Notes under the pieces: model-generated
The model's database searches: none
Seen by the model: the letters and a program-made list of their open reading frames with translations, nothing else
Told to the model about the DNA's origin: nothing
Position numbers and translations under genes: made by a program
DNA from: Escherichia phage vB_EcoS-UDF157lw
Reading direction: 5' to 3' (one strand)
Sequence record: OQ243221
Length of the DNA stretch: 46,604 nt
Shown here: piece after piece, positions 1 through 28,289 of the stretch
Layout of the letters: each line of letters starts with the position of its first letter
Numbering within the stretch: the stretch's first letter is position 1

Positions 1-44
1 TGGATCAAATAGTTGGTTGGTTTTATCGCTCGCGGAGAGACTTC

Positions 45-235
45 TTTATATACGCGTAGTCCGCTGTCTACCGATTGTCGACCGTATCCACATTTACAAT
101 TTATACGCCTTGATACAATCCATATACACTAAAATATCCTTATATATAAAGTACTTAGACTATTATTATTATTATATATAGTATTATGTATATATAGCGT
201 ATCATCTGTACGCTACTATATAGGTTGGTTTGCTT
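45..235. repeat. AT-rich non-coding block homologous to 27079-27270 (direct repeat, diverged)
   Basis: See partner; contains TATACGC-type repeats at 47-54, 101-108, 198-205 (inverted) and an ATTATTATTATTAT tract. Confidence 0.6.
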
Positions 236-435
236 AAATTTCTATTTTTATTCCTACACTGTAGGAATTGTACTACCTTGTAGGAAAATATAAGGGGATA
301 TAGCTAGAACCCCCTCATCTATATGTAGACGCACGTAGACGCCTGTACACACCCAGCAACGATGCGGCATGCAGGGCAAAAAGCGTATCAATTTTAAAAT
401 AAACAAAAAAATACATTTATAGACACGTAAATCTT

Positions 436-459
436 TGCTATAGTCATTTCATCGAAACG
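436..459 (+). promoter_or_regulatory. Extended -10 promoter-like element (TGcTATAGT, 436-444) followed by conserved leader CATCGAAACGA (449-459) upstream of first early gene
   Basis: Read directly: ttTGcTATAGTcatttCATCGAAACGAGG then RBS aacgagagga and ATG at 494. No recognisable -35. Confidence 0.45.
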
Positions 460-493
460 AGGCAACAAACAACAATCAACGAGAGGAATCATC

Positions 494-1036
494 ATGAGCA
501 AAACGACCTTAGGTGAAGTAATTCGATTCATGGCTAAAAAGGCACTCCAGTCAGAAGATAAGGAGTTTAAGGTTCCAGTTCGAGATATTTACCGACAAAT
601 TAGAGGTCATGATTACCCGGAAATGGAGACTGATGATAAAACCGGGGATATTATCAACCTTGGAGAGCGGAAGTTGAGTGAGTTAAAGAACTCATACATT
701 CATAATACATTGTCACGAATGAGAGAGTTGCGTGAGGCTAAGTATATCGCCCGTTATCAATTCATCTGGATTGATGCGGATGGTGAAGATACCACGCCCC
801 GCCAGTATGATGGCGATGGTGCTGATAAATACCTGCTAATCCATCTCACCGAGGGGGTTAAGGAGCCAAAAGCAAAACAAAGAGAGAAAGAAGAAAAGGA
901 GCGGGCTGTTATTGAGAAGTTCAAATCTCGCTTGCTTAAGTTATCACCTAACGTACTGGATTTTGAAGGTGATGAGCTGACTGGCGCAGTTAAGGCTATC
1001 CGCATGTATCAAGAGATGATCAAGGAGTTTAACTAA
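494..1036 (+). CDS. Hypothetical early protein (180 aa), charged/Lys-Glu-rich C-terminal half
   Basis: ORF with GAGAGGA RBS 7 nt upstream; first gene after the AT-rich leader; no motif recognised. Confidence 0.6.
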   Translation: MSKTTLGEVIRFMAKKALQSEDKEFKVPVRDIYRQIRGHDYPEMETDDKTGDIINLGERKLSELKNSYIHNTLSRMRELREAKYIARYQFIWIDADGEDTTPRQYDGDGADKYLLIHLTEGVKEPKAKQREKEEKERAVIEKFKSRLLKLSPNVLDFEGDELTGAVKAIRMYQEMIKEFN

Positions 1037-1596
1037 TGTTTGATTTCGACGAAGATAAGTTAACTGATGACCAGGTGATGGAAGTCGCCAGGCAAGATAA
1101 CCTGCCGCCACTTCGTGTGGCAATCAATACTAATGGATACCGCCAATCATTCAATTTCTGGCCCAGCGCCGAAGAGATGCTGTGCGTCAAGTTGAGCTAC
1201 AAATACGGCGTCGTAGTGAGCATGATTAGACGCCAGGGCTGGAATGGAGTGGTTGGCATTCGATCTCTATACGAGGCAATCCGAAAGGTCCAGCCATTCG
1301 TCTGGCGCGAAGGGATTATGCATGACCTGACAAATAACATCATCCCAGAACTACAGGAGGCGGGAATTGTTTGCCTCATTGGCGATAAGATTTATGTTCA
1401 TCCGGCCCTGGTTGAGATGGATAAGGACGACGTGCAAAACTGGTGCAGTCAGTGCCGATCCGACGCGCCACGCTCAAACTACGTGCCACCGCAAACAACA
1501 ATCCATGGCTATGATGCCGATGAGGTGGAGAAGGCCATACAGTTCTACCGGAAAGCGAAAGCTCTCCTGAATGGTGAATATAGCACAAATTGCTAA
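1036..1596 (+). CDS. Truncated paralogue of the replication P-loop ATPase (N- and C-terminal domains only, 186 aa)
   Basis: Start overlaps previous stop (TAATG). N-terminus MFDFDEDKLTDDQVMEVARQDNLPPLRVAINTNGYRQS matches N-terminus of the 42577-44160 minus-strand protein; C-terminal GVVGIRSLYEAIRKVQPF...CLIGDKIYVHP matches its C-terminus; the ATPase core is absent. Confidence 0.7.
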   Translation: MFDFDEDKLTDDQVMEVARQDNLPPLRVAINTNGYRQSFNFWPSAEEMLCVKLSYKYGVVVSMIRRQGWNGVVGIRSLYEAIRKVQPFVWREGIMHDLTNNIIPELQEAGIVCLIGDKIYVHPALVEMDKDDVQNWCSQCRSDAPRSNYVPPQTTIHGYDADEVEKAIQFYRKAKALLNGEYSTNC

Positions 1597-1623
1597 ACAA
1601 TAAATTGGGTAGTCAGCTATGAT
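1581..1623 (+). promoter_or_regulatory. Composite promoter-like element: TAGCACaaaTTGCTAAA, 22 nt, TATGAT
   Basis: Palindrome TAGCA-N5-TGCTA overlapping the stop of the upstream gene; -10-like hexamer 22 nt downstream; leader ...AAACGAGAGGA before ATG 1655. Confidence 0.5.
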
Positions 1624-1654
1624 TACCCTATCAACCAAACGAGAGGAATAAAAG

Positions 1655-1888
1655 ATGATCTTAATTAACCTATCTGAAAGGCAAGCCAAAGAGATTAAAG
1701 CAGTACTGATGCATTGCATTAACCGAAAGCTATTTAGCTCGTCAGAATCGCTTACAGAGGTTGTAAATCAGATTCGAAATCAGGAGTTTGAAGATATACT
1801 GCCGTGGGAAGAGGACTTGGCCTGGCTTGAGTACGAGCAGGTTTGCACGGCACTATCAGGCTGCCAACTGGCTAGCCAATACAAGTGA
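1655..1888 (+). CDS. Hypothetical protein (77 aa)
   Basis: ORF with RBS aacgagagga; preceded by composite promoter element. Confidence 0.5.
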   Translation: MILINLSERQAKEIKAVLMHCINRKLFSSSESLTEVVNQIRNQEFEDILPWEEDLAWLEYEQVCTALSGCQLASQYK

Positions 1889-2006
1889 CAATCTACGAAC
1901 ACACGTTCAGCAGCAGGGGTATCGATATGCTCTTGCATTACGTAGACGAGAGATACGCCATGTTAATGCAGAAGACGCATGGCGGCACTATAAAGAGGGT
2001 TGAGAT

Positions 2007-2123
2007 ATGTACTACTATATAATTCCTGTTGAAGATTTGATTCGTGATTACAGTCACGGCTACATTGCTGTATGCGACGCTGATACAATGACTGCATATG
2101 TTGACTTTGATTTTGAGGATTGA
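2007..2123 (+). CDS. Small hypothetical protein (38 aa)
   Basis: Hand-translated ORF MYYYIIPVEDLIRDYSHGYIAVCDADTMTAYVDFDFED; RBS agaggg-ttgagat-ATG nearly identical to the RBS context of the next gene. Confidence 0.3.
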   Translation: MYYYIIPVEDLIRDYSHGYIAVCDADTMTAYVDFDFED

Positions 2124-2126
2124 GAT

Positions 2127-2426
2127 ATGAGTAAGTACGAAAAAGAGATTATTGGCCTGGACGGCACCAAGACTACGGTTGATGTATATCGCGTCATCGC
2201 AGCATTTGGCGTAACGGACCCGGCACTACAGCATGCCATCAAAAAGGTACTGTGCAGCGGCATTCGAACACGACATAAGGATTACCCTACCGACATCAAT
2301 GAGGCCATTGTATCGCTTCAGAAGGCCATAGAATTCCATGATCAAAGGGGCGCACATGTCCAGGAACTTATAGACAAGTATCGCAACGGACCTAAACATT
2401 ATCTTGATAGCTGGAGCAACAAATAG
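2127..2426 (+). CDS. Hypothetical protein (99 aa)
   Basis: ORF with RBS gagga 8 nt upstream; the stop codon is the TAG of the downstream TAGCAC motif. Confidence 0.55.
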   Translation: MSKYEKEIIGLDGTKTTVDVYRVIAAFGVTDPALQHAIKKVLCSGIRTRHKDYPTDINEAIVSLQKAIEFHDQRGAHVQELIDKYRNGPKHYLDSWSNK

Positions 2427-2466
2427 CACAAATTGCTAAACATCCATCGCAAGGATGCGTTACCAT
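2424..2466 (+). promoter_or_regulatory. Composite promoter-like element: TAGCACaaaTTGCTAAA, 22 nt, TACCAT (weak -10)
   Basis: Same architecture; spacer holds inverted repeat CATCC...GGATG; leader TATCGAAATGAGACGAGG. Confidence 0.4.
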
Positions 2467-2498
2467 TACTTTATCGAAATGAGACGAGGAAAGATTAA

Positions 2499-2627
2499 AT
2501 GTGTGGATATGATGAGTTGCCAAGTGAATGGTGTAAAAAGATGATGGATGAGGCTAAAGATGGGGATGAAGTAATGGCGTACTTTGAGTTGATGAACATG
2601 TGGCATGAGCGCGAGGAGAAGAAATGA
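2499..2627 (+). CDS. Small hypothetical protein (42 aa)
   Basis: ORF MCGYDELPSEWCKKMMDEAKDGDEVMAYFELMNMWHEREEKK with RBS cgagga; stop overlaps next start (ATGA). Confidence 0.3.
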   Translation: MCGYDELPSEWCKKMMDEAKDGDEVMAYFELMNMWHEREEKK

Positions 2628-2917
2628 AGATTTACGTATTCACTGGCAACTTATTGGCAGCCAACGATTCTGAAGGTGGTGACGGCAAGCGAGCAATTCA
2701 CATGGGGAGTAAGAAACAAACAATGAGGCGCATATCTATTGATGAAGCAATTAAAATTGGTAGCTTCGTTTGCTTGTGGGTATGTGATGGTGAGCTTCAA
2801 GCGGAACAGGTTAGGAATGGTTACGTATATACTGGATATGATGAATATGACGATGAGAGAGAATTGTTTCAGCCTGCATTTTATCTCGACGCTGAATTTT
2901 ACATCGCTGGAGAATAA
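2624..2917 (+). CDS. Hypothetical protein (97 aa)
   Basis: ORF in track; translationally coupled to the upstream small ORF. Confidence 0.5.
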   Translation: MKIYVFTGNLLAANDSEGGDGKRAIHMGSKKQTMRRISIDEAIKIGSFVCLWVCDGELQAEQVRNGYVYTGYDEYDDERELFQPAFYLDAEFYIAGE

Positions 2918-2920
2918 CCC

Positions 2921-3055
2921 ATGATATGGATTCACACGTACTACACTGGCAAGTTCAATAGCGTAATGCACAAACGAATGTATGACAGCTATGAATCAGC
3001 AAAGGCACAGCAGGCAGTCCTAGGTGGCGATATTCAATCTTACAAGAAGGCTTAA
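2921..3055 (+). CDS. Small hypothetical protein (44 aa)
   Basis: Hand-translated ORF MIWIHTYYTGKFNSVMHKRMYDSYESAKAQQAVLGGDIQSYKKA; ends 2 nt before the next ATG. Confidence 0.3.
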   Translation: MIWIHTYYTGKFNSVMHKRMYDSYESAKAQQAVLGGDIQSYKKA

Positions 3056-3057
3056 TC

Positions 3058-3297
3058 ATGTTCGGACTTACTCAACCACAATTTAATGCAGTTCGCGCCC
3101 AAGCTAAGAAACTTAACGAGGCAGTGGATAAGCTGACAAGCAAGCAGAAGCAGGATAATGACATCATGAAGGCGATTATCTGTGAGTTTCATAGCCCAGT
3201 CAGTACAATCATCGAGAAGATGAAGTTTGTTTGGGTTGCAGGCTATCTTGCTGGTCGCGTAGGTAAGCGTGAAGATGGGGAGCAGATTTATGACTAA
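3058..3297 (+). CDS. Hypothetical protein (79 aa)
   Basis: ORF in track; tightly packed with flanking genes. Confidence 0.5.
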   Translation: MFGLTQPQFNAVRAQAKKLNEAVDKLTSKQKQDNDIMKAIICEFHSPVSTIIEKMKFVWVAGYLAGRVGKREDGEQIYD

Positions 3298-3484
3298 ATC
3301 ACTAGGGAAAGTCAGATGCATTGTGTCTTACAATGATAAGAAGTTCAAAACTGGTAAATCTTACAGCATTTTGTCATCACCCGCATATGGTTGGGTTAAA
3401 TGTGAGTCAGAAGATGGGTGTATAGAGATGGTTAAAGATGGCAATGACATTGAGTTTGGTTACTTTGAGGTATTTTATGACTGA
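3290..3484 (+). CDS. Hypothetical protein (64 aa; start moved to internal ATG)
   Basis: ATG at 3290 overlaps the upstream stop (ATGACTAA); the track start at 3269 would overlap 29 nt. Confidence 0.45.
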   Translation: MTKSLGKVRCIVSYNDKKFKTGKSYSILSSPAYGWVKCESEDGCIEMVKDGNDIEFGYFEVFYD

Positions 3485-3541
3485 GCTATCAATCTGGTTC
3501 CTGGCTGGCATGTTGACGTGGATTTATTTCGTCGTCATGGC

Positions 3542-3570
3542 TTGACGAAAATGTTAAAAGTGGTTAGTAT
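3542..3570 (+). promoter_or_regulatory. Candidate sigma70-type promoter (TTGACG, 17 nt, TAGTAT) upstream of the tRNA region
   Basis: Hexamers and 17-nt spacing read directly; lies in a 286-bp non-coding gap. Confidence 0.3.
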
Positions 3571-3770
3571 TAACCACGTAGACGGCAATGACCGTAACGC
3601 TCATCGCGGAGATGCAAGCCGATAGCCGGGCTGGATAAAGATACGAGGCAAATAAAACCGCAGTTAGACATTGAGTGCTTAGCATAGCGCACGCCTTAAT
3701 GCAGTAAGTCGGACTTGACCTTCCGAGGATTGTGAAACCTCCCCGCATTCGGTAAGCGGGACTCATTCTA

Positions 3771-3846
3771 GTTCTGCTGGCGTAACAGGATAACGCAGAG
3801 ACCTCCTAAGTCTCAGTTACTGGTTCGAGTCCAGTGCGGAACACCA
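3771..3846 (+). tRNA. tRNA-Arg (anticodon CCU, reads AGG)
   Basis: Hand-folded cloverleaf: acceptor GTTCTGC/GCGGAAC (one G-U), D-arm GCGT/ACGC with GG in loop, anticodon stem GAGAC/GTCTC with loop CTCCTAA (U33, CCT, A37), T-arm ACTGG-TTCGAGT-CCAGT, discriminator A, encoded CCA. Confidence 0.85.
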
Positions 3847-3862
3847 AGCATGGAGCATCCTA

Positions 3863-4048
3863 GTGAATAACTACGAAGTCCGTTTAACTTCCCGCCTAAT
3901 GGGTCGGCAATGCAAATCTTGCCAGCAATCCTACGAAGGTAGGTTCATTGCTAAAAGCCCTGAAGAAGCAGTTGCAGCCGCAAAGGCAGCATTTAATATT
4001 GACCTGACAGTTCACAAGGTCAGCGTTGATAAAGTATCCCTCGTTTGA
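3863..4048 (+). CDS. Hypothetical protein (61 aa, GTG start)
   Basis: ORF in track; GGAG 7 nt upstream of GTG; followed by a strong terminator. Confidence 0.35.
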   Translation: MNNYEVRLTSRLMGRQCKSCQQSYEGRFIAKSPEEAVAAAKAAFNIDLTVHKVSVDKVSLV

Positions 4049-4728: not shown

Positions 4729-5217
4729 ATGAATTGGCATGATGAATTTGATTATGATGATGGGCTGCTTTACTGGAAGTGCAGCTTAAAAAATGGCTCA
4801 AGAAAGAAAGGCCACGTTGCTGGTAATATTGACGCAAGCGAAGGTTATGTGAACATAAATTTAAAGACTGGAAAGGTTAAAGCTCACCGTGTTATATGGG
4901 AGATGTTTAACGGTAAAATACCTGACGGAATGGAAATTGACCACATCAACCATGACAGAAGCGACAACAGAATTGATAACTTGAGAATGGTTACTAGGTC
5001 AGAGAACCAAAAGAATAAGAGTAGGTTCAAGAACAACACTTCAGGAATATCAGGTGTAACATGGTGTAGTCGCCATTGCAAATGGAGGGCCAGAATCATG
5101 ATTAACGGAAAGTCAAAGAATCTAGGTAGATTTGACACAATAGAAGCTGCGGCAAAGGCTCGCTCAGACGCTGTAGACGCTCTCGGTTTTCACAAGAATC
5201 ACGGAGATAGAAATTAA
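4729..5217 (+). CDS. HNH homing-type endonuclease with AP2-like DNA-binding domain (162 aa)
   Basis: Motifs EIDHINHDRSDNRIDNLRMVTRSENQ (HNH) and GVTW...KWRARI...LGRF (AP2-like). Start moved to ATG 4729, which follows RBS taggaggg. Confidence 0.8.
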   Translation: MNWHDEFDYDDGLLYWKCSLKNGSRKKGHVAGNIDASEGYVNINLKTGKVKAHRVIWEMFNGKIPDGMEIDHINHDRSDNRIDNLRMVTRSENQKNKSRFKNNTSGISGVTWCSRHCKWRARIMINGKSKNLGRFDTIEAAAKARSDAVDALGFHKNHGDRN

Positions 5218-6779
5218 TGATTATATGGGATGAATTAACCAATCAGGAGAGGCTGGCCATTAAGGCAATTTCAGAGCACAGCTTCGAAGGGTTCTTGCGC
5301 TGCTGGTTCTCAATCACTCAGGGGCAGAAGTTCATTATGAACTGGCATGCGAAATACCTTTGCCGGATTGTTGATGAGATTATTGAGGGCAAAAGGAAGA
5401 ACACGATAATCAACGTTGCTCCTGGCGCCTCTAAAACGGAGCTGTTCAGCATCCACTTTCCTGTATATAGCATGATAAAGCTGGGCAAGGTAAGGAATCT
5501 AAACCTTAGCTTTGCCGACACGCTGGTTAAGAGGAACTCAAAGAGAGTCAGGGATTTGATTAGTTCAAGTGAGTTTCAGAGTTTATGGCCTTGCAAGTTC
5601 GGAACATCAAGGGATGATGAGATACAGGTACTTGATGATTCCGGTAGGGTAAGGTTTGAGTCAATATCCAAGGCTATGGGGTCACAGATTACTGGTAGTC
5701 GTGGTGGTTATATTACCGACTCATATAGCGGGTGTATTATGTTGGATGATTGCGAGAAACCCGCAGATATGTTTAGTAAGGTTAAGCGCGAGTCCGTACA
5801 TACAACTCTAACAAACACAGTTCGCTCTCGTAGGGCTAGCTCAGTAAAAGGTAAGGAAACTCCTGTAATATCTATTCAGCAGCGATTACATGTTAATGAT
5901 GCAACGTGGTTGATGAAAGAGGGCGGCATGGGCATGGAATTTGACGTGATTAAGATTCCAGCTTTAGTTACGGAGGAATACGCCAACGAGCTTCCTGATT
6001 GGATTCGTGATCAGTTTTGTAAGGATGTTCTCTCATCTGAATACATAGAGCGAGATGGTGTTAAATACTATAGCTACTTCCCGCAAAAGGAGTCAGTTCA
6101 TGACATAATGAAGCTATGGGATCAAGATAGCTACACCTTCATGAGTCAGTATCTTCAAGAGCCAGTAGCCTTAGGCGGAAACCTGATTAACGTAGATTGG
6201 TTTGTTCGTCTTGACGAGAACAATAGGCCGCCAGTCAAGTATGACTACCGTTTCATTACGGCTGATACTGCCATGACTACTAAGAGTTATAGTGACTACT
6301 CAGTATTCCAGCTATGGGGGCGCAAAGATAACAGGCTTTATCTTCTGGATATGGTAAGGGGTAAATGGGAAGCACCTGAACTTGAGCAAACTCTTCTGGA
6401 CTTTGAGAGTAAGCATAGAGCAGCTAGTAAGACAGATGGTATATTGCGCAAGGTTATTATCGAGAAGAAAGCGTCTGGAATAGGACTTATCCAGTCGGCG
6501 GGTCGGGTAATGCGAACTCCTATCGAGCCTTTCGTTCCAGATACAGATAAGTTAACCAGGGTGATGAGCGCACTGCCACAGATTAAAGCTGGTAACGTAG
6601 TTCTGCCTGACTCTGCGCCATGGCTTACCTCGCTATTAACCGAGTTCTCGGCGTTCACTGCTGACGATTCTCATCCCCATGATGACATTGTGGATACGAC
6701 AACAATGGCCATCAACTGTGAATTGAACTTGAGTGACGATCCGAGAGCCCGCTTAATGAGGCTAGCTGGAGTTAAGTAA
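5217..6779 (+). CDS. Terminase large subunit (520 aa)
   Basis: Size, position before portal, deviant Walker A (APGASKTE) and acidic nuclease-like C-terminal half; start overlaps HNH stop (TAATG). Confidence 0.8.
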   Translation: MIIWDELTNQERLAIKAISEHSFEGFLRCWFSITQGQKFIMNWHAKYLCRIVDEIIEGKRKNTIINVAPGASKTELFSIHFPVYSMIKLGKVRNLNLSFADTLVKRNSKRVRDLISSSEFQSLWPCKFGTSRDDEIQVLDDSGRVRFESISKAMGSQITGSRGGYITDSYSGCIMLDDCEKPADMFSKVKRESVHTTLTNTVRSRRASSVKGKETPVISIQQRLHVNDATWLMKEGGMGMEFDVIKIPALVTEEYANELPDWIRDQFCKDVLSSEYIERDGVKYYSYFPQKESVHDIMKLWDQDSYTFMSQYLQEPVALGGNLINVDWFVRLDENNRPPVKYDYRFITADTAMTTKSYSDYSVFQLWGRKDNRLYLLDMVRGKWEAPELEQTLLDFESKHRAASKTDGILRKVIIEKKASGIGLIQSAGRVMRTPIEPFVPDTDKLTRVMSALPQIKAGNVVLPDSAPWLTSLLTEFSAFTADDSHPHDDIVDTTTMAINCELNLSDDPRARLMRLAGVK

Positions 6780-6791
6780 TCATGATAAACT

Positions 6792-6817
6792 GCCCCTTAC
6801 TCAGGGGCTTTTTTATT
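6792..6817 (+). terminator. Rho-independent terminator between terL and portal
   Basis: GCCCCT-tactc-AGGGGC hairpin followed by TTTTTTATT. Confidence 0.65.
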
Positions 6818-6828
6818 GGAGAAATTAC

Positions 6829-8103
6829 ATGGTAAAAGCAGACAGCTACGCAAACATCTTTCTTAGCGGGAGTGATGGTAGTGAGGTTTACGGAAAGTTT
6901 GGCAGCCTTGGCCTAACAGCGCCAGCGCAGCTTGAGCAACTTTACGTCAGCAGCGCTCTGGTTCGTCGAATTATTGATATCGTTCCAGAGGTCGCACTTG
7001 GCGCAGGCTTTAGTATTGAAGGTATCGACGACGAAGGTGCTTTCTGGTCGCGATGGGATGATTTAGGCCTTTCAGATAACGTAATCGACGCACTAGCCTG
7101 GGCGAGACTATACGGTGGCGCTGCTGTAGTGGCAATTGTGAAGGATGGAAGGGCGCTAACCAGCCCGGTTCGTGAAGGTGCGGAGCTTGAAACGGTTCGT
7201 GTGTACGACCGGCAGCAAATTAAGGTCCAGACTCGCGAGGAGAATCCACGTAACGCGCGTTTTGGTAAGCCATTAACTTACCGCATCACACCAAACGGGT
7301 CGGCAACGTTCTACGATGTGCACTATACACGCTGTCACATCATTGATGGCGAGCGAGTACCTAACAACCTGCGTCGTAATAACGATGGCTGGGGCGCAAG
7401 CGTACTAACTGGTGACTTAATTGACGCGATTGACGACTATCAGAACTGTGAGCGACTGGCTACTCAGTTACTTCGTCGTAAACAGCAGGCGGTGTGGAAA
7501 GCAAAAGGCCTTGCTGACTTATGTGATGATTCAGATGGATTTGGAGCAGCTCGTTTACGTCTGGCTCAGGTGGATAATAACAGTGGCGTTGGTCAGGCTA
7601 TCGGGATTGACGCGGATAGTGAAGAGTACAACGTTCTCAACTCAGATATTGGCGGTATTGATACATTTCTGAGTCAGAAGTTCGATCGAATCGTTGCTCT
7701 GAGCGGTATTCATGAGATTATCCTTAAGGGTAAGAATGTTGGTGGTGTGTCAGCAAGCCAGAACACTGCTCTAGAGACTTTCTACGGTTATGTTGACCGT
7801 AAGCGCAAGGCTGAATTATTGCCTCTGCTTGAGTTCCTGCTGCCGTTCATCGTAACCGAGCAAGAGTGGTCAGTAGAATTTAACCCTCTATCGCAGGTTA
7901 GTGACAAGGATAAATCTGAGATTCTTGAGAAGAATGTTAACTCAGTTGCTGCATTGATTGCAGCTGGAATCATTGACGCAGACGAAGCAAGAGATACGTT
8001 GCGCGCAATTTCAACTGAGGTTAAGATTGGTGAAGGCTCAATTCAAACGGAGGTTGTAATTAATGAATCAGAAGACCCGCTGGATGTATCCGCAAATAAT
8101 TGA
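6829..8103 (+). CDS. Portal protein (424 aa)
   Basis: Size and position directly downstream of terL and upstream of the minor head protein; no catalytic motif expected. Confidence 0.7.
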   Translation: MVKADSYANIFLSGSDGSEVYGKFGSLGLTAPAQLEQLYVSSALVRRIIDIVPEVALGAGFSIEGIDDEGAFWSRWDDLGLSDNVIDALAWARLYGGAAVVAIVKDGRALTSPVREGAELETVRVYDRQQIKVQTREENPRNARFGKPLTYRITPNGSATFYDVHYTRCHIIDGERVPNNLRRNNDGWGASVLTGDLIDAIDDYQNCERLATQLLRRKQQAVWKAKGLADLCDDSDGFGAARLRLAQVDNNSGVGQAIGIDADSEEYNVLNSDIGGIDTFLSQKFDRIVALSGIHEIILKGKNVGGVSASQNTALETFYGYVDRKRKAELLPLLEFLLPFIVTEQEWSVEFNPLSQVSDKDKSEILEKNVNSVAALIAAGIIDADEARDTLRAISTEVKIGEGSIQTEVVINESEDPLDVSANN

Positions 8104-22318: not shown

Positions 22319-22368
22319 TTTAGTGTAGAATGGCACAAATGGTTAAACAAACAACGAGGTTATATGAT

Positions 22369-25300
22369 ATGGCCGATTTGCCAAAGATTTATGGAAGCAA
22401 GGGTGGTAGCAAGAAGCCGCACACGCCTGTAGAGCAAGAAGATAACCTGATTTCACTAAACAAGATTAAGGTGCTACTGGCTGTAGCTGATGGAGAGGTT
22501 GATTCTAGTTTCTCGCTCAAGGATGTTTACCTTGCTGACGTTCCGGTGCAAAACCAGGATAACTCATTCAACTATGAAGGTGTGACAGCTGAGTTTCGCG
22601 CCGGCACTCAATCCCAAGATTACATCGCAGGACTAGATGGCGCGGCATCAGAGATTCAGGTTAGTCGTGAAATTAACAACGACACACCTTACATCATCGC
22701 AGTTAACAACAGTCAGCTATCAGCAATCCGCGTTAAACTGTTCTGGCCTCGGCTCGTTAAGCAAGAAGAGAATGGAGATTTAAATGGAACAACATGTGAA
22801 TATGCAATCGATTTATCAGTTAATGGCGCAGCGTACACGGAATATACCAGAGGCGTGGCTAACGGTAAAACTACAACAGGTTACGACCGCAGCATCAGGG
22901 TTAACCTACCAGCCGAGTTTAGCAGCGCTCTTGTTCGTATTAGGAAGTTAACGCCAGACTCAACAAGTAGCACTCTGGTTAACGGAATGCAGATTACAAC
23001 CTATCAGGAAGTAATCGACGCTAAGTTCCGCTACCCTCTTACGGCACTTGTTTATGTGGAGTTCAGTTCTGACCTGTTCCCTAATGGCATCCCAACGATA
23101 GCCATTAAGAAAAAGTGGAAGCTTATCCGTGTGCCGACAAACTACAATCCAGAGACAAGAACTTATAGCGGAGCATGGGATGGAACCTTTAAAATGGCAT
23201 GGTCTGACAACCCGGCCTGGGTTTTATATGACCTGGTGGTTAGCCAGCGTTACGGTTTAGATCAGCGAGAACTTGGTGTTGAGATTGATAAATGGGGTCT
23301 GTATGAAGCAGCGCAATTCTGCGACCAGATGGTTCCTGATGGTAAGGGTGGAATGGAGCCGCGATATACTTGTAACGTTGTCATTCAGCAGAAAGTGGAA
23401 GCGTATCAGCTTATTCGTGACATCTGTTCTATCTTCCGCGGTTTAACCTTCTATGATGGTGAGCAAATCGGGATTGTTGTAGACAGGCCGCGCCAGCCAA
23501 GCTATGTGTTCACTAATGATAACGTTGTTGATGGATTGTTTAACAGGACATTCTCTAGCGACAAGAGCCTTTACACGACAGCCAACGTTCAGTTTGATGA
23601 CGAGCAGAACAACTACCAGCAGGACGTCGAGCCAGTATTCGACTTAGAAGCAACACGCCGATTTGGTTACAACCCTGTAGACTTGACTGCAATTGGCTGC
23701 GTAAGGCGAAGCGAGGCTAACCGCCGTGGTCGCTGGTTGCTGAAAACAAACCTTCGCAGTGAAACGGTAACGTTCACAACTGGCCTCGAAGGCATGATTC
23801 CTATGATTGGTGATGTAATTGCTGTTAATGACCAGGCATGGTCAAGCAACTACACATTAAACCTTTCTGGTCGAATTGTTGAAGCTACAGGTTTGCAGGT
23901 CTTCGTACCATTCGCTATTGATGCTGACCCTGGTGACAGGATTTTAATCAACAAGCCAGATGGGAGCCCAGAGTACAGGACTATCGCTTCAGTATCTGCC
24001 GATAAGTTGACGCTTGAACTGAATACAGCATTCAGCTTCACACCTCAGCCGGATACGGTATTTGCAATCGACAAGCAGAATCTGGCGTTGCAGCAATACG
24101 TTGTGACAGGAATTCAAAAAGCAAACACGGACGGCGAGGATTCATTCCAGTACAGCATCACTGCGGTGCAGTATGACCCGAACAAGTATGACGAGATTGA
24201 CTATGGTGTGAATATTGACGACAGGCCAACAAGTATCGTTGACCCTGACAGGATTTTACCACCTGAAAATATCACCGTTACTAGTTACAGCAAGGTAGTT
24301 CAGGGTTTAAGCGTTGAGACGATGGTTATTGGTTACGACAAGGTGCAGTATGCGAAAACATACAACGTACAATGGCGTAAGAACAATGGTAACTGGATTA
24401 ACGTACCAGAGACGGCTAACACCGAGGTTGATATTGAAGGAATTTACGCTGGCATCTACGACGTAAGGGTTCGTGCCGTAACTGACCAGAAATCAGTATC
24501 TGCCTGGTCTGATATAACGACAGTTAGCCTGACCGGCAAGATTGGGGAACCTTCGGCGCCGCCTGTAATTACCGCATCTGATGATGAGGTTTTCGGGATT
24601 AGGGTTAAGTGGGGTTTTCCTACTGATTCAGCTGACACTGCGTACACTGAGCTTCATCAGGTTCCTGATAATGGTGACGGTACATACAATCCAGAGAGCG
24701 CATCGCTGCTTACACTGGTTCCGTATCCTCAGTACGAATACTGGCACACCACTTTACCAGCAGGTAACGTGAGGTGGTACAGAGCGAGGATTATTGACAG
24801 GATAGGTAACGTATCGCCATGGACTGATTTTGTAAGGGGCATGGCATCTGACGACGTAAGTGCAATAATTGGTGATATCAAGGTTGATATCGAAAACTCT
24901 GATGGTTACAAGTACCTACTTCAGAACGCCATTGATGCAAACACGGATATCCAGAATCAGGCTGAGGCAATTATAGAGAACGCCCTGGCAAACGATACTG
25001 ACGTTCGCGTTATGAAGCGCGAGAATGGCGCAAGGAAGGCTGAATATCGTCAGGCTGTAAGTTTGATTGCTGATGAAACTCAGGCCCGTGTGGACGCTCT
25101 CACGCAGCTTAAAGCGCAGATTGATGATGAGATTGTTGGTCAGATTACGACAATTGAAACCGCGCTTGCTACGGAGACCGAAGCCAGGGCTACAGCTGAT
25201 ACTCAATTAAGCGCAAGGCTTGGTGATAACGAGGCGGCTTTGAATCAGAAGCTTGACTCTTATGCCACTGTCGAAGGGGTTGGTGTTCAGTACGGCGTCA

Positions 25301-25755
25301 AGCTAGGCCTTAAGTACAATGGGGTTGAGTATGGCGCTGGTATGAGCATGGAGTTAACAGGTAGCGGCGGTAATGTTCGCAGTCAGTTCATTTTCGATGC
25401 TAACAGGTTCGCAATCAGCAACGGCATTAGCTCTGGTTCAGGTCAGTGGTCGCTGCCTTTCGTTGTGGAGAATAACCAGGTGTTCATTCAGAGCGCGGTG
25501 ATTCAGGATGGTTCAATTACTAACGCGAAGATTGGTAACAGGATTCAATCAAACAACTATGTTGCTGGTAGTGCTGGTTGGGCAATTGATAAATCTGGTT
25601 TTGCTGAGTTAAGTAACGCTACCGTTCGCGGTAGTTTGTACGCTAACAATGGTAACTTCGCGTTTAACGGAACCAACAATACTGTCGTAATAAACAATAA
25701 CGGCATAACTGTTAATTTACCAAATGGAGGTAGGGTAGTGGTTGGAGTATGGTAA
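22369..25755 (+). CDS. Central tail fibre / host specificity protein (lambda J-like, about 1128 aa)
   Basis: Length and position; N-terminus ...KGGSKKPHTPVEQEDNL resembles J-type N-termini; start moved to ATG 22369 with GAGG RBS. Confidence 0.85.
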   Translation: MADLPKIYGSKGGSKKPHTPVEQEDNLISLNKIKVLLAVADGEVDSSFSLKDVYLADVPVQNQDNSFNYEGVTAEFRAGTQSQDYIAGLDGAASEIQVSREINNDTPYIIAVNNSQLSAIRVKLFWPRLVKQEENGDLNGTTCEYAIDLSVNGAAYTEYTRGVANGKTTTGYDRSIRVNLPAEFSSALVRIRKLTPDSTSSTLVNGMQITTYQEVIDAKFRYPLTALVYVEFSSDLFPNGIPTIAIKKKWKLIRVPTNYNPETRTYSGAWDGTFKMAWSDNPAWVLYDLVVSQRYGLDQRELGVEIDKWGLYEAAQFCDQMVPDGKGGMEPRYTCNVVIQQKVEAYQLIRDICSIFRGLTFYDGEQIGIVVDRPRQPSYVFTNDNVVDGLFNRTFSSDKSLYTTANVQFDDEQNNYQQDVEPVFDLEATRRFGYNPVDLTAIGCVRRSEANRRGRWLLKTNLRSETVTFTTGLEGMIPMIGDVIAVNDQAWSSNYTLNLSGRIVEATGLQVFVPFAIDADPGDRILINKPDGSPEYRTIASVSADKLTLELNTAFSFTPQPDTVFAIDKQNLALQQYVVTGIQKANTDGEDSFQYSITAVQYDPNKYDEIDYGVNIDDRPTSIVDPDRILPPENITVTSYSKVVQGLSVETMVIGYDKVQYAKTYNVQWRKNNGNWINVPETANTEVDIEGIYAGIYDVRVRAVTDQKSVSAWSDITTVSLTGKIGEPSAPPVITASDDEVFGIRVKWGFPTDSADTAYTELHQVPDNGDGTYNPESASLLTLVPYPQYEYWHTTLPAGNVRWYRARIIDRIGNVSPWTDFVRGMASDDVSAIIGDIKVDIENSDGYKYLLQNAIDANTDIQNQAEAIIENALANDTDVRVMKRENGARKAEYRQAVSLIADETQARVDALTQLKAQIDDEIVGQITTIETALATETEARATADTQLSARLGDNEAALNQKLDSYATVEGVGVQYGVKLGLKYNGVEYGAGMSMELTGSGGNVRSQFIFDANRFAISNGISSGSGQWSLPFVVENNQVFIQSAVIQDGSITNAKIGNRIQSNNYVAGSAGWAIDKSGFAELSNATVRGSLYANNGNFAFNGTNNTVVINNNGITVNLPNGGRVVVGVW

Positions 25756-25762
25756 ATGATTA

Positions 25763-25787
25763 AGCCCCTTTCGGGGCTTTTTCTTTT
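25763..25787. terminator. Bidirectional terminator between J and the convergent leftward pair
   Basis: AGCCCC-tttc-GGGGCT hairpin followed by TTTTTCTTTT on the plus strand. Confidence 0.65.
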
Positions 25788-26748
25788 AGTAGAAGTTGGG
25801 AATAAATGGAAGTGCCATTGATATGTTTGTATCAAATGGGAATTGCGCGCCAGTTTGAGTTGAATAGTTACCTATAACAGTTCCTGGGACGGCTCTAACT
25901 GAACCTCCAGACATGCAAACACCCTTGTATCGTAAGTTATTATATCCACCAGTGACTCTAGTTGTCGCTCCGCATCTAAGTATTGGGAAGAACCCACCAT
26001 TCACCGACTGGTAACCATTATTAATCTGCATAAATCCACTTAGAACAAATGGCCTCCTGATGCTAGAGAAAACTATCTGCCCAGCGCTGTTTGATATCGT
26101 TAAACCCGGACCAGCTACTGGAGGTGTATTATTGAAAATAACTAACTGAACGTAAGTACTTGCAGCAACATCATCAATCCCATTGTATGTTATATCCCTA
26201 CACCATATCGTACTACCATCACTTTCAAGGGATACGTTTGGGTTATCCCATTTACCAAAAGGAATGCCGCCAACTGGCAATGATGCAGAGCCATTAACCT
26301 GGATGCCACCAACCCAAGCAGCAGTCATTAATCTGGAATTGCTTGATATCGCTGTAAAGTCAGTCGAGTTCTCAACAAGGACACCGGGGCTTGATTGTGA
26401 TGATGCTGGTAAAATCTCAAAGCACTGACCGCCAAACTGCAATATGCGACCATTAGCGCCGTTAAAGTTACTTAATGTAATCCTTCCAACCCCATCATTA
26501 ACCTTCGAGAACCCATTCATGTAATAAACTTCTGGTATAACATCATATGCATCAACATAAACAGCCTGAGTTGGCAGGCAGAATGCTGTTGAGCCAGGAG
26601 TCATAGTCAGACCGAAATCCCATGATGATGCTGGTGAGCTTAACCCGCTAGTGTTTATTGAACCAGTCACGGCTGGAACTCTCAAGCCAGCTGTGATTTC
26701 CATTGCTGGCCTTCCGTCATTCAAATCTATCAAGATACCTTGAGGCAT
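25786..26748 (-). CDS. Hypothetical beta-rich protein (320 aa), co-transcribed with Cor-like lipoprotein
   Basis: ATG overlaps the upstream stop (TAATG) with AAGGAG RBS; Gly/Ser/Asn/Thr-rich, no signal peptide. Confidence 0.55.
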   Translation of the reverse strand: MPQGILIDLNDGRPAMEITAGLRVPAVTGSINTSGLSSPASSWDFGLTMTPGSTAFCLPTQAVYVDAYDVIPEVYYMNGFSKVNDGVGRITLSNFNGANGRILQFGGQCFEILPASSQSSPGVLVENSTDFTAISSNSRLMTAAWVGGIQVNGSASLPVGGIPFGKWDNPNVSLESDGSTIWCRDITYNGIDDVAASTYVQLVIFNNTPPVAGPGLTISNSAGQIVFSSIRRPFVLSGFMQINNGYQSVNGGFFPILRCGATTRVTGGYNNLRYKGVCMSGGSVRAVPGTVIGNYSTQTGAQFPFDTNISMALPFIPNFY

Positions 26749-26993
26749 TATTTCCACTCCTTTGAGCCGTGATCTGCAACTGAGCCGCCGTAGCCTCCAC
26801 CAACCTTTGACTCAATGCCAGCATAACGAATATCAACCTCTCCAGCTGCAACAATAACACCACCCTTCCATTTAGCTACGCATACACCAGAGGCCTGAGT
26901 TGCACACCATCCGTCAGGTCGCGGGCCAGAAGAACAACCTACTGTCATGATTACTGCTGCTGCGATGATTGCTGATTTGATGAAGTTAGTCAT
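26748..26993 (-). CDS. Small lipoprotein, Cor-like superinfection-exclusion candidate (81 aa)
   Basis: N-terminal signal peptide with lipobox-like TVGC ([22 protein letters not shown]); location downstream of tail fibre genes as for cor in T1/phi80-type phages. Confidence 0.5.
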
Positions 26994-27017
26994 TTTGTAT
27001 TCCTTAGTAAGTATGTT

Positions 27018-27077
27018 TCGTTTCGATGGAGTAACTATAGCAAAGGCTTCTGCTGGAGTCTTTAGCAAATCGTGCTA
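27018..27077 (-). promoter_or_regulatory. Composite promoter-like element on minus strand: TAGCACgatTTGCTAAA, 23 nt, TGcTATAGT, leader CATCGAAACGA
   Basis: Reverse complement of 27018-27077 read directly; drives the lipoprotein operon. Confidence 0.5.
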
Positions 27078-27078
27078 T

Positions 27079-27270
27079 TTGATATACGCGTAACCGATGT
27101 AACTCGATGTATACAATCTCATACGCGGAAAATTGTATACGCTTTTTACGCGAAGATACGCATTAGTTACACTATAGAATCCTTATATAATAAGGGTTTA
27201 GAGTAATTATTATTATTACTATATTTGTTTGTATATAGTGTAACTACTCTCTATGGTTATGTTGGTGTGT
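27079..27270. repeat. AT-rich non-coding block homologous to 45-235, with GATACGC-type iterons and a (TTA)n tract
   Basis: Shared blocks such as atatacgcgta, atccttatata, ttattattattat, gtatatag, ggtt..gtttg with window positions 45-235, same orientation. Confidence 0.6.
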
Positions 27271-27435: not shown

Positions 27436-27478
27436 TAGCACGAATAATCAAAACTGATTCTTCCTGATTGGTTATAGT
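27436..27478 (+). promoter_or_regulatory. Degenerate composite promoter-like element: TAGCACgaaTAATCAAAA, 22 nt, TATAGT, upstream of Rha-like gene
   Basis: Half-motif conserved (TAGCAC); TATAGT at 27473-27478. Confidence 0.4.
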
Positions 27479-27488
27479 GCACTCACCG

Positions 27489-27512
27489 GCAGCAGTGGTG
27501 CTGCTTTTGATG
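27489..27512 (+). promoter_or_regulatory. Leader hairpin plus U-run (attenuator-like) upstream of Rha-like gene
   Basis: GCAGCA-gtgg-TGCTGC followed by TTTTGATG, between the putative promoter and the start codon. Confidence 0.35.
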
Positions 27513-27578
27513 CAAAAAAATGCACCACAAAATCCGGGAGTGAAAATAATTCAACCCCAAAAACGAGAGATGATAGGT

Positions 27579-28289
27579 ATGAATCTGATTAATATTGATG
27601 AAAACGTAACCATGAGCAGCCTTGAGATTGCTGAATTGACCGGGAAGCGTCACGATAACGTAGTAAGGGATATTAGAGAAATGCTGAATGATAATGAGAT
27701 ATGCTCAGGATTTAGCCAATCTCACTCCTCAAATTTGAGGAGTGAAATTCAAAATGAATCTCGCGGCTCAAATGTGGACCGCCAGATTAAACACCCATTT
27801 GAATCTGAGTACAAAAACTCAAGAGGCCAAACTCAGCCATGCTTCAACTTACCATATCGTGAAACCATGATTTTGATGGTTGGTTACAACAGAAAGGTAG
27901 CCGCAAAGATTGTTGACCGCTGGCTACACCTTGAGCGGGAAAACAAGCTCCTTAAAGAGCACATGAAGAAGATGGTTTCACTTGATGAGGTTAAGGTTTA
28001 CAAAGTTGAGGCGGCATCAGCAAAGGCTGCACAGCACAGAGCTGAGGATAACTATTACGCAATTGAGAAGTTCATGTTTAAGAACATGGATAAGTGCGAA
28101 AATCCTGCAGAACTTGATGAGCAATACTTCGATGTTAAATTCGAGTCAAATCGTTACCATGACTCTCAAGAGTTGGTTTACAAGTACCAGGCTCAGCTTG
28201 AGGTTGCTTGCGAGAAGTTAAAGGCTAAAGATGATCTGATTGCCAATCTGGTGCATAAAGGCGAACCGCTTAAGCTTGGTAAAAAGTAA
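27579..28289 (+). CDS. Rha-family phage regulatory protein (237 aa from ATG 27579)
   Basis: N-terminal motif SSLEIAELTGKRHDNVVRDIREML typical of Rha/antirepressor-type proteins; coiled-coil C-terminus. Track start 27468 spans the leader hairpin and is rejected. Confidence 0.65.
   Translation: MNLINIDENVTMSSLEIAELTGKRHDNVVRDIREMLNDNEICSGFSQSHSSNLRSEIQNESRGSNVDRQIKHPFESEYKNSRGQTQPCFNLPYRETMILMVGYNRKVAAKIVDRWLHLERENKLLKEHMKKMVSLDEVKVYKVEAASAKAAQHRAEDNYYAIEKFMFKNMDKCENPAELDEQYFDVKFESNRYHDSQELVYKYQAQLEVACEKLKAKDDLIANLVHKGEPLKLGKK

Follow-up and report, generated by a model that had tools for sequence, protein, structure and literature searches.

In the BASEL phages, the allele carried at a locus downstream of gpJ corresponds without exception to the terminal receptor used, a relationship that spans Drexlerviridae, Dhillonvirus and Queuovirinae, and the rtp44/rtp45-type allele was assigned to LptD from resistance mutants with lptD loop deletions (Maffei et al. 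2021, PMC8594841). This tracking of allele and receptor was confirmed in a screen of 255 phages, in which the LptD family was delimited at > 30 % identity and > 99 % coverage, all such proteins tracked with LptD, and the tip of GpJ was found to co-vary with the receptor-binding protein (RBP) encoded at the locus (bioRxiv 10.64898/2026.04.02.716166). Structures of both the RBP and the exclusion lipoprotein on LptDE were solved by Dunbar et al. (PNAS 2025; PMC12685063). The RBP of phage Oekolampad (RBPOeko) has a double beta-sandwich fold, with a tail-proximal part that is disordered in the cryo-EM map, and binds the extracellular face of LptDE; entry 9rpt holds this protein on open LptDE, and binding was also demonstrated in vitro, where it was abolished by LptD resistance mutations (PMC12685063). 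In entry 9rps, the lipoprotein Rtp45 is bound to LptDE from the periplasm and lies between LptE and LptM. Rtp45 contains a Cys30–Cys38 disulfide, its residues 30–35 pair with strand beta6 of LptD (residues 318–323), and its hairpin, which runs up the LptD lumen, pushes extracellular loop 4 as far as 20 Å out of place, so that the RBP no longer binds (PMC12685063).

Closer to the phage studied here, OzMSK, which its authors describe as 'nearly identical' to MSK, fails on two lptD loop-deletion strains; the same study lists a Rogue1 ORF as a predicted LptD-RBP, with an RMSD of 0.36 Å to the OzMSK model, and divides the LptD-RBP family into three groups that perhaps differ in how they bind (PMC13035648). 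The pb5/Llp pair of T5 follows the same logic, with an RBP held non-covalently on the central fibre and a periplasmic lipoprotein that disables the receptor (PMC12685063, PMC8594841), although the receptor there is FhuA, and Llp acts by long-range allostery whilst Rtp45 displaces a loop physically (PMC12685063). The module is already known, together with its receptor and mechanism: the biology was worked out in Maffei et al. 2021, in Black et al. 2025 and in Dunbar et al. 2025, and the Rogue1 clade is named explicitly in this literature. What the present analysis yields is a correction of annotation for two genes of this kind.

Anatomy of the locus and its phage relatives

The window analysed is the whole 46,604 nt sequence of Escherichia phage vB_EcoS-UDF157lw (record OQ243221). 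Using the ORF list and direct reading of the sequence, we confirmed two genes on the minus strand. The first, at 26748..26993, specifies a lipoprotein of 81 aa plus stop; its ATG lies at 26993, its TAA at 26750–26748, and a Shine-Dalgarno sequence, AAGGA (27005–27001), is found 7 nt upstream of the start. The second, at 25786..26748, specifies 320 aa plus stop, from an ATG at 26748–26746 to a TAA at 25788–25786, and its Shine-Dalgarno sequence, AAGGAG (26762–26757), is located 8 nt upstream, within the lipoprotein gene. Stop and start overlap in the sequence TAATG (26746..26750, minus strand), sharing one base, an arrangement that points to translational coupling. The ORF list also offered a GTG start for the second gene at 26757, giving 323 aa; this start was rejected and the ATG at 26748 kept, as the latter has the Shine-Dalgarno sequence and every homologue starts at the ATG (MPQGI/MPEGI...).

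Both genes matched full protein families, the first PF24052 (E = 2.4e-38) and the second PF20051 (E = 8.1e-139), and on these matches they are genuine genes rather than chance ORFs. A leftward two-gene unit with TAATG coupling and a lipoprotein as its first product, as described in the first-pass annotation, was thus borne out by the sequence and by the two family matches. The unit is convergent with the gene for a J-like central tail-fibre/tip protein of 1141 aa (22330..25755, plus strand), which carries the Pfam domains FNIII-A_GpJ, Phage-tail_3 and Phage_Tail_Tip; J ends at 25755 and the stop codon of the 320-aa gene is reached at 25786.

The region was 99 % identical to Escherichia phage BECP10 and 96–98 % identical to Rogue1, AHP24, AHS24, C119 and phiKP26; the records of Rogue1 and AHP24 place these phages in Rogunavirus, Drexlerviridae. 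Amongst annotated records, the 1 nt overlap and the gene order were identical in Rtp, JeanPiccard, Rogue1 and AHP24, the coupled genes being rtp45/rtp44 in Rtp and bas02_0025/0024 in JeanPiccard, and the same J-convergent layout was present in Rtp, Bas02, Bas18, Bas25 and Rogue1. More broadly, the Rtp44/Rtp45, AugustePiccard/JeanPiccard (Bas01/Bas02), OzMSK/Msk and Rogue1 pairs consist of the same two Pfam families, with the lipoprotein gene preceding the RBP gene, and share with the window the TAATG overlap, the J-convergent position, an intergenic hairpin and a promoter frame. The Oekolampad (Bas18) genes bas18_0025, for the RBP, and bas18_0026, for the exclusion lipoprotein, with structure entries 9rpt, 9rpw and 9rqi, resemble the window in full-length homology, fold and locus layout, whereas they differ in belonging to a Dhillonvirus, in a lipoprotein of only 40 % identity, and in being separated by 2 nt with no overlap.

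The flanks and the body of the second gene have diverged to different degrees. Compared with Rtp, nucleotide identity was 66–83 % from the promoter through the lipoprotein gene to ~50 nt into the RBP gene, 37–59 % across the RBP body (26700–25801), and 58–78 % in the 3′ part of J. The window thus carries a different allele of the RBP body from Rtp and Bas02 (42 % identity at the amino acid level, 37–59 % at the nucleotide level) between conserved flanks. From these comparisons, the RBP body behaves as an exchangeable or fast-diverging cassette set between conserved docking and exclusion functions, which would also explain how a lipoprotein that is 79 % identical to Rtp45 can be paired with an RBP that is only 42 % identical to Rtp44.

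Family membership of the two proteins

The 81-aa protein matched PF24052, the 'Phage lipoprotein family', with 130.4 bits (cut-off 27), residues 1–80 aligning with profile positions 1–80 of 80, and was also assigned to phrog_4281. Its N-terminus is hydrophobic (Kyte-Doolittle 19-residue maximum of 1.76, residues 4–22) and leads into a lipobox, ...IMTVG-C20, that aligns with MMVG-C20 in Rtp45; the residue at position -3 is a T, which is non-canonical, and Cys20 is the predicted lipid anchor. Searching PDB sequences at E ≤ 1 returned 9rps_D, the Rtp45 chain of the LptDE complex (E = 2.6e-34); the other matches to this protein within that threshold were chance enzyme hits. Identity was 79 % to Rtp45, 91 % to the Msk protein, 96 % to that of Rogue1 and 40 % to that of Oekolampad. 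Relative to Rtp45, the window protein has a 5-residue insertion near the C-terminus, and it retains Cys20, Cys30 and Cys38, as well as an identical CATQAS segment at residues 30–35, the strand that pairs with LptD in Rtp45. We relied on this comparison and made no structure prediction for the lipoprotein because, according to the authors of 9rps, AF3 models neither Rtp45 nor its complex correctly (PMC12685063) and because 79 % identity to a solved chain is more informative.

The first-pass annotation had likened this protein to Cor, the lipoprotein of T1, phi80 and N15. Cor excludes phages through inactivation of their receptor. The likeness holds for position, as both are small leftward lipoprotein genes at the end of a locus downstream of J, as is cor in T1; it does not extend to descent. 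The BLASTP alignment with T1 Cor covered only residues 8–25, that is, the signal peptide and lipobox. In a one-to-one comparison, the mature parts were 23 % identical (E = 0.049, not significant), and T1 Cor scored 17.7 bits against PF24052, under the cut-off of 27. Homology to Cor was rejected on these comparisons. A tblastn search with T1 Cor against the window gave nothing significant, the T1 FhuA-locus genes ST31 and ST32 had no tblastn match in the window at E ≤ 1, and the window proteins had no counterpart in T1. Homologues of T1 ST32/ST31 and N15 gp22/gp23 are the mark of the FhuA-type locus that Cor accompanies. Cor thus differs from the window protein in its unrelated mature part, its FhuA target and its partner genes. 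Similarly, neither T5 pb5 nor Llp was returned by the PDB sequence searches at E ≤ 1.

The superinfection exclusion put forward for this gene is nevertheless supported, in that Rtp45, the closest characterized relative, is a receptor-blocking lipoprotein (PMC12685063); it is the receptor that changes, from FhuA to LptD. Judged by its relationship to Rtp45, the small gene would encode an exclusion factor of that family that blocks the receptor, with LptD rather than FhuA as the predicted target. In function it would be analogous to Cor and to T5 Llp; it belongs to a separate family.

The 320-aa protein, previously noted as Gly/Ser/Asn-rich and beta-rich, indeed contains 12.2 % G, 10.3 % S and 7.5 % N, and an AlphaFold2 model (59-sequence alignment, mean pLDDT 84.7) was all-beta with no helix. 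It was assigned to PF20051 (DUF6453) with 462 bits (cut-off 25), residues 4–297 aligning with profile positions 1–291 of 291, and to phrog_1265. Records of related phages name the two genes 'hypothetical protein'/'membrane protein' and 'putative lipoprotein', and the PHROGs/RefSeq label for the 320-aa protein is 'membrane protein / moron'. The 'membrane protein' annotation was rejected, as the protein has no transmembrane-like segment (hydropathy maximum 0.86) and no signal peptide.

Rather than being uncharacterized, as first stated, this protein is a relative of the Oekolampad RBP within one family. Against PDB sequences it matched 9rpt_C (also 9rpw and 9rqi) over residues 2–320 at E = 3.7e-67, with no other protein returned at E ≤ 1, and a Foldseek search of the PDB with the model returned 9rpt_C as the sole match at E ≤ 0.001 (E = 1.4e-20; TM 0.72 normalized to the query and 0.90 to the target). 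Identity to the Rogue1 protein was 98.8 %, followed by 88 % for Msk, 44 % for Oekolampad, 42.5 % for VogelGryff and 42 % for Rtp44/JeanPiccard, with alignment coverage of ~100 % for the Oekolampad, JeanPiccard/Rtp44, VogelGryff and Msk proteins. With more than 30 % identity at near-full coverage, the 320-aa protein falls within the published bounds of the LptD family. The most conserved stretches of the family were residues 1–30 and 121–140, both modelled with a pLDDT of 52–67, and the variable ones were residues 31–110 and 241–310; this pattern fits the published view of a conserved, tail-proximal base and variable loops that contact LptD (PMC13035648).

The genomic context of homologues likewise points to the tail. 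In prophages, Klebsiella phages and Kuravirus podophages, they were found within the tail operon, directly after the J or tail-needle gene: in an E. coli prophage the DUF6453 gene has the same orientation as J and follows it at a distance of 8 nt, in a Klebsiella phage it directly follows J, and in Kuravirus podophages it directly follows the tail-needle gene, whose product carries a Phage_Tail_Tip domain, as does the C-terminus of J. No Rtp45-like lipoprotein gene was found beside the DUF6453 gene in the flanks fetched for the E. coli prophage, the Klebsiella phage, the Seuratvirus VogelGryff and SU10. Kuravirus genomes have a DUF6453 gene and, located elsewhere in the genome, a gene for an Rtp45-like lipoprotein.

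The C-terminal tail of J itself is of a matching type. Its last 42 aa were identical to Rtp at 35 of 42 positions, to Oekolampad at 24 of 40, to a Klebsiella phage at 25 of 41 and to T1 at only 10 of 40, and T1 J could be aligned only as far as nt 25650 of the window. The last ~35–42 residues of J are hence of a type common to phages carrying DUF6453 and not that of T1, and J is the presumed docking partner of the RBP.

From its homology, the large gene is a tail-tip RBP and not the second exclusion or receptor-modifying component that had been suggested, a role at odds with both the RBP homology and the tail-operon context of the homologues. The first-pass annotation had proposed a homology search for this protein and held that its detection as a tail component of the virion would speak against an exclusion role; the search gave tail-component homology and context, which comes close to such a result on a basis other than virion proteomics. 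In the literature, we came across no proteomic analysis of virions that covers a DUF6453 protein; the SU10 homologue, gp19, is absent from the seven proteins named as structural in the SU10 paper and goes unmentioned in the literature on that phage that was consulted.

Predicted receptor and proposed mechanism

Taken together, we consider it very highly probable that the two genes form a module of a terminal RBP for LptD and a cognate exclusion lipoprotein that would block LptD. Gene anatomy, family membership, full-length homology, the fold match, synteny and the conservation of Rtp45 features were computed here; for this phage we infer that it is specific for LptD, that its RBP is attached to J, that the lipoprotein confers exclusion, and when the two genes are expressed. 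That LptD is the receptor appears highly likely from the sequence relationships described above.

By this reading, the DUF6453 protein would be made late and would be held by non-covalent contacts at the tip that the C-terminus of the J-like central fibre forms, probably via its N-terminal ~30 residues, which are highly conserved, and the conserved segment at 121–140. The variable loops of the beta-sandwich would then enter the extracellular mouth of the LPS translocon LptD(E), a step that would commit the phage to injecting its DNA. Made from the same mRNA immediately ahead of the RBP, the 81-aa protein would be exported and lipidated at Cys20 and, by analogy with Rtp45, would bind LptDE from the periplasm and send a beta-hairpin up the LptD lumen. 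Extracellular loop 4 would be displaced and RBP binding lost, with the result that superinfecting LptD-dependent phages would be excluded and progeny would not be wasted on receptors in cell debris.

A variant of this scheme, in which the Rogue1/Msk-type RBP has some outer-membrane protein besides LptD as its receptor or depends on a co-receptor, with the lipoprotein acting there, seems to us very unlikely. It could draw on the RBP being only 42–44 % identical to the family members studied by experiment, those of Rtp44/Bas02 type and that of Oekolampad, on the divergence of the RBP body (37–59 % nucleotide identity to Rtp) between conserved flanks, and on Bas01, a carrier of an Rtp44-type RBP that additionally needs NupG via a J domain and so demonstrates a dual receptor requirement in the group (bioRxiv 10.64898/2026.04.02.716166). 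Set against this, OzMSK cannot grow on either of two strains with independent loop deletions in lptD, and the RBP of its near-twin Msk is 88 % identical to that of the window (our comparison was made with Msk, the likeness of OzMSK to Msk being that given by its authors); the lipoprotein is 79 % identical to the LptDE-bound Rtp45, with an identical LptD-pairing strand; and in the 255-phage screen, family proteins above 30 % identity all tracked with LptD. By analogy with Bas01, this phage may have a second receptor requirement as well. Least credible of all, and scarcely to be entertained, is a Cor-type lipoprotein that blocks FhuA alongside a 320-aa non-virion factor serving as a second exclusion or receptor-modifying component, for whilst the cor-like position, the co-transcription and translational coupling of the two genes and the 'membrane protein / moron' label would suit it, the mature lipoprotein has no significant similarity to Cor, which itself scores under the PF24052 cut-off, counterparts of ST31/ST32 are absent from the window, and the 320-aa protein lacks a signal peptide and transmembrane segment, shares full-length homology and fold with an RBP on the outside face of LptDE, and has homologues encoded within tail operons that have no lipoprotein gene close by.

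Assignment of the pair to LptD replaces the labels 'hypothetical protein', 'membrane protein' and 'moron' with an LptD-type RBP and its cognate superinfection-exclusion lipoprotein. It also makes LptD predictable as the terminal receptor, which is of use in receptor prediction and in the choice of phages for cocktails. As LptD is essential, resistance would be expected to arise via loop changes and not via loss of the protein; furthermore, expression of an Rtp45-like lipoprotein by the host or by a prophage is expected to confer resistance to this phage. We also considered an extension that we regard as unlikely, namely that the Rogue1/Msk-type allele engages LptD in another mode or state than RBPOeko, with a near-unchanged lipoprotein excluding all alleles; that RBP diversification stems from variation in host LptD loops and not from exclusion; and that LptD would be the hitherto unrecognized terminal receptor of Kuravirus podophages via a portable pair of J-tip domain and DUF6453 protein.

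Expression signals of the two-gene unit

Upstream of the lipoprotein gene, we read a putative sigma-70 promoter on the minus strand (27034..27062), consisting of a weak -35 element, AAGACT (27062–27057), a 17 nt spacer and an extended -10 element, TGcTATAGT (27042–27034; TG at 27042–27041 and TATAGT at 27039–27034). A generic consensus scan did not call the site, and returned three promoter-like sites against a shuffle mean of 5.1; cross-phage conservation was therefore used in place of the scan. By this comparison, Msk, Rtp and JeanPiccard retain a -35 of the form xxGAC(A/T), a spacer of 16–17 nt and a -10 of the form TAnnnT, whereas the TG of the extended -10 is not conserved in these phages. 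Of the dedicated extended -10 promoter originally ascribed to the pair, the motif is present and its -35/-10 frame is conserved; the extended part is not, and a promoter for the two-gene unit is plausible but unproven.

An alternative -35, TTGCTA, was rejected, as it would leave a spacer of 22–23 nt and belongs instead to a conserved palindrome. This palindrome, TAGCA-N5-TGCTA (27063..27077, minus strand), abuts the -35 element and is kept in the window, Rogue1, AHP24, Msk and JeanPiccard, with a degenerate form in Rtp; it is possibly a regulator site. At the other end of the unit, the RBP gene is separated from the convergent J gene by a GC-rich hairpin (25762..25779), followed by a good T-run on the plus strand and a weak one on the minus strand. 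The AHP24 record marks this hairpin as a terminator for both strands and the Rogue1 record does so for the minus strand; it is probably a bidirectional terminator shared by the two transcription units.

DUF6453 homologs in Kuravirus podophages

Homologs of the LptD-type receptor-binding protein (RBP; DUF6453, PF20051) are present in the Kuravirus podophages MN03 (NC_070990.1) and SU10 (NC_027395.1), with MN03 gp027 matching both PF20051 (E = 1e-24) and 9rpt_C (E = 1.7e-9), the Oekolampad RBP chain solved with LptDE. In these regions (1983-3987 of fetched locus L008 for MN03; 5089-7090 of fetched locus L011 for SU10), the Kuravirus DUF6453 gene lies directly 3' of the tail-needle gene, the product of which carries a Phage_Tail_Tip domain of the type found in J, the central tail-fibre/tip protein. 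Both genomes also specify a lipoprotein resembling Rtp45, the superinfection-exclusion lipoprotein of phage Rtp, at a site away from the DUF6453 gene (72748-72894 in MN03; 66333-66440 in SU10). The DUF6453 gene after the tail needle, together with the lipoprotein in the same genomes, suggests that Kuravirus podophages may use LptD as a terminal receptor, a role that has gone unrecognised. O-antigen dependence is the sole dependence given for these phages in the BASEL-2 paper, which draws a parallel between the short tail fibres of Kuravirus and T-even phages, the latter binding the LPS core as their terminal receptor. The SU10 homolog, gp19, goes unmentioned in the SU10 structure paper.

DUF6453 loci without a neighbouring lipoprotein

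In a lambdoid Escherichia coli prophage (GCA_003773125.1; 2790-6957 of fetched loci L012/L013) and the Klebsiella siphophage RCIP0011 (1-3457 of fetched locus L009), the DUF6453 gene comes after J and has the same orientation. No Rtp45-like lipoprotein was found in the fetched flanks of these two loci or of that of Seuratvirus VogelGryff (2377-3466 of fetched locus L006); thus, an exclusion gene is not invariably present beside the RBP gene. As DUF6453 genes are found not only in this prophage but also in many Citrobacter, Salmonella and E. coli chromosomes, the RBP family is also used by temperate phages.

J ends in a segment of ~35-42 residues (RGSLYANNGNFAFNGTNNTVVINNNGITVNLPNGGRVVVGVW; window 25630-25755) that is shared by J of other DUF6453-carrying phages but not by that of T1, the single non-LptD control in this comparison. 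This segment is a candidate for the site at which the RBP docks.

Annotation, divergence and upstream region of the RBP gene

In RefSeq/PHROGs the 320-aa RBP (25786-26748) is labelled 'membrane protein' or 'moron, auxiliary metabolic gene and host takeover'. These labels look wrong, as neither a transmembrane segment nor a signal peptide was found in its sequence.

Divergence from Rtp is mosaic across the locus: the RBP body (25801-26700) shares 37-59% nucleotide identity with Rtp, whilst its flanks (26701-27200 and 24800-25800), comprising the putative promoter, lipoprotein gene, RBP 5' end and 3' part of J, share 58-83%. Consequently, the relationships of the two proteins to Rtp are discordant, with amino acid identities of 79% for the lipoprotein versus 42% for the RBP.

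Directly 5' of the putative -35 element of the lipoprotein/RBP unit is a palindrome, TAGCA-N5-TGCTA (27063-27077, minus strand), conserved in Rogue1, AHP24, Msk and JeanPiccard and degenerate in Rtp, which may be a regulator binding site. Divergent from the unit lies a gene (27468-28289, plus strand) that is the counterpart of a Rogue1 gene annotated as an anti-repressor with a pRha motif, followed by an exonuclease VIII gene. The AT-rich spacer of ~475 nt between this counterpart and the unit probably houses divergent promoters.
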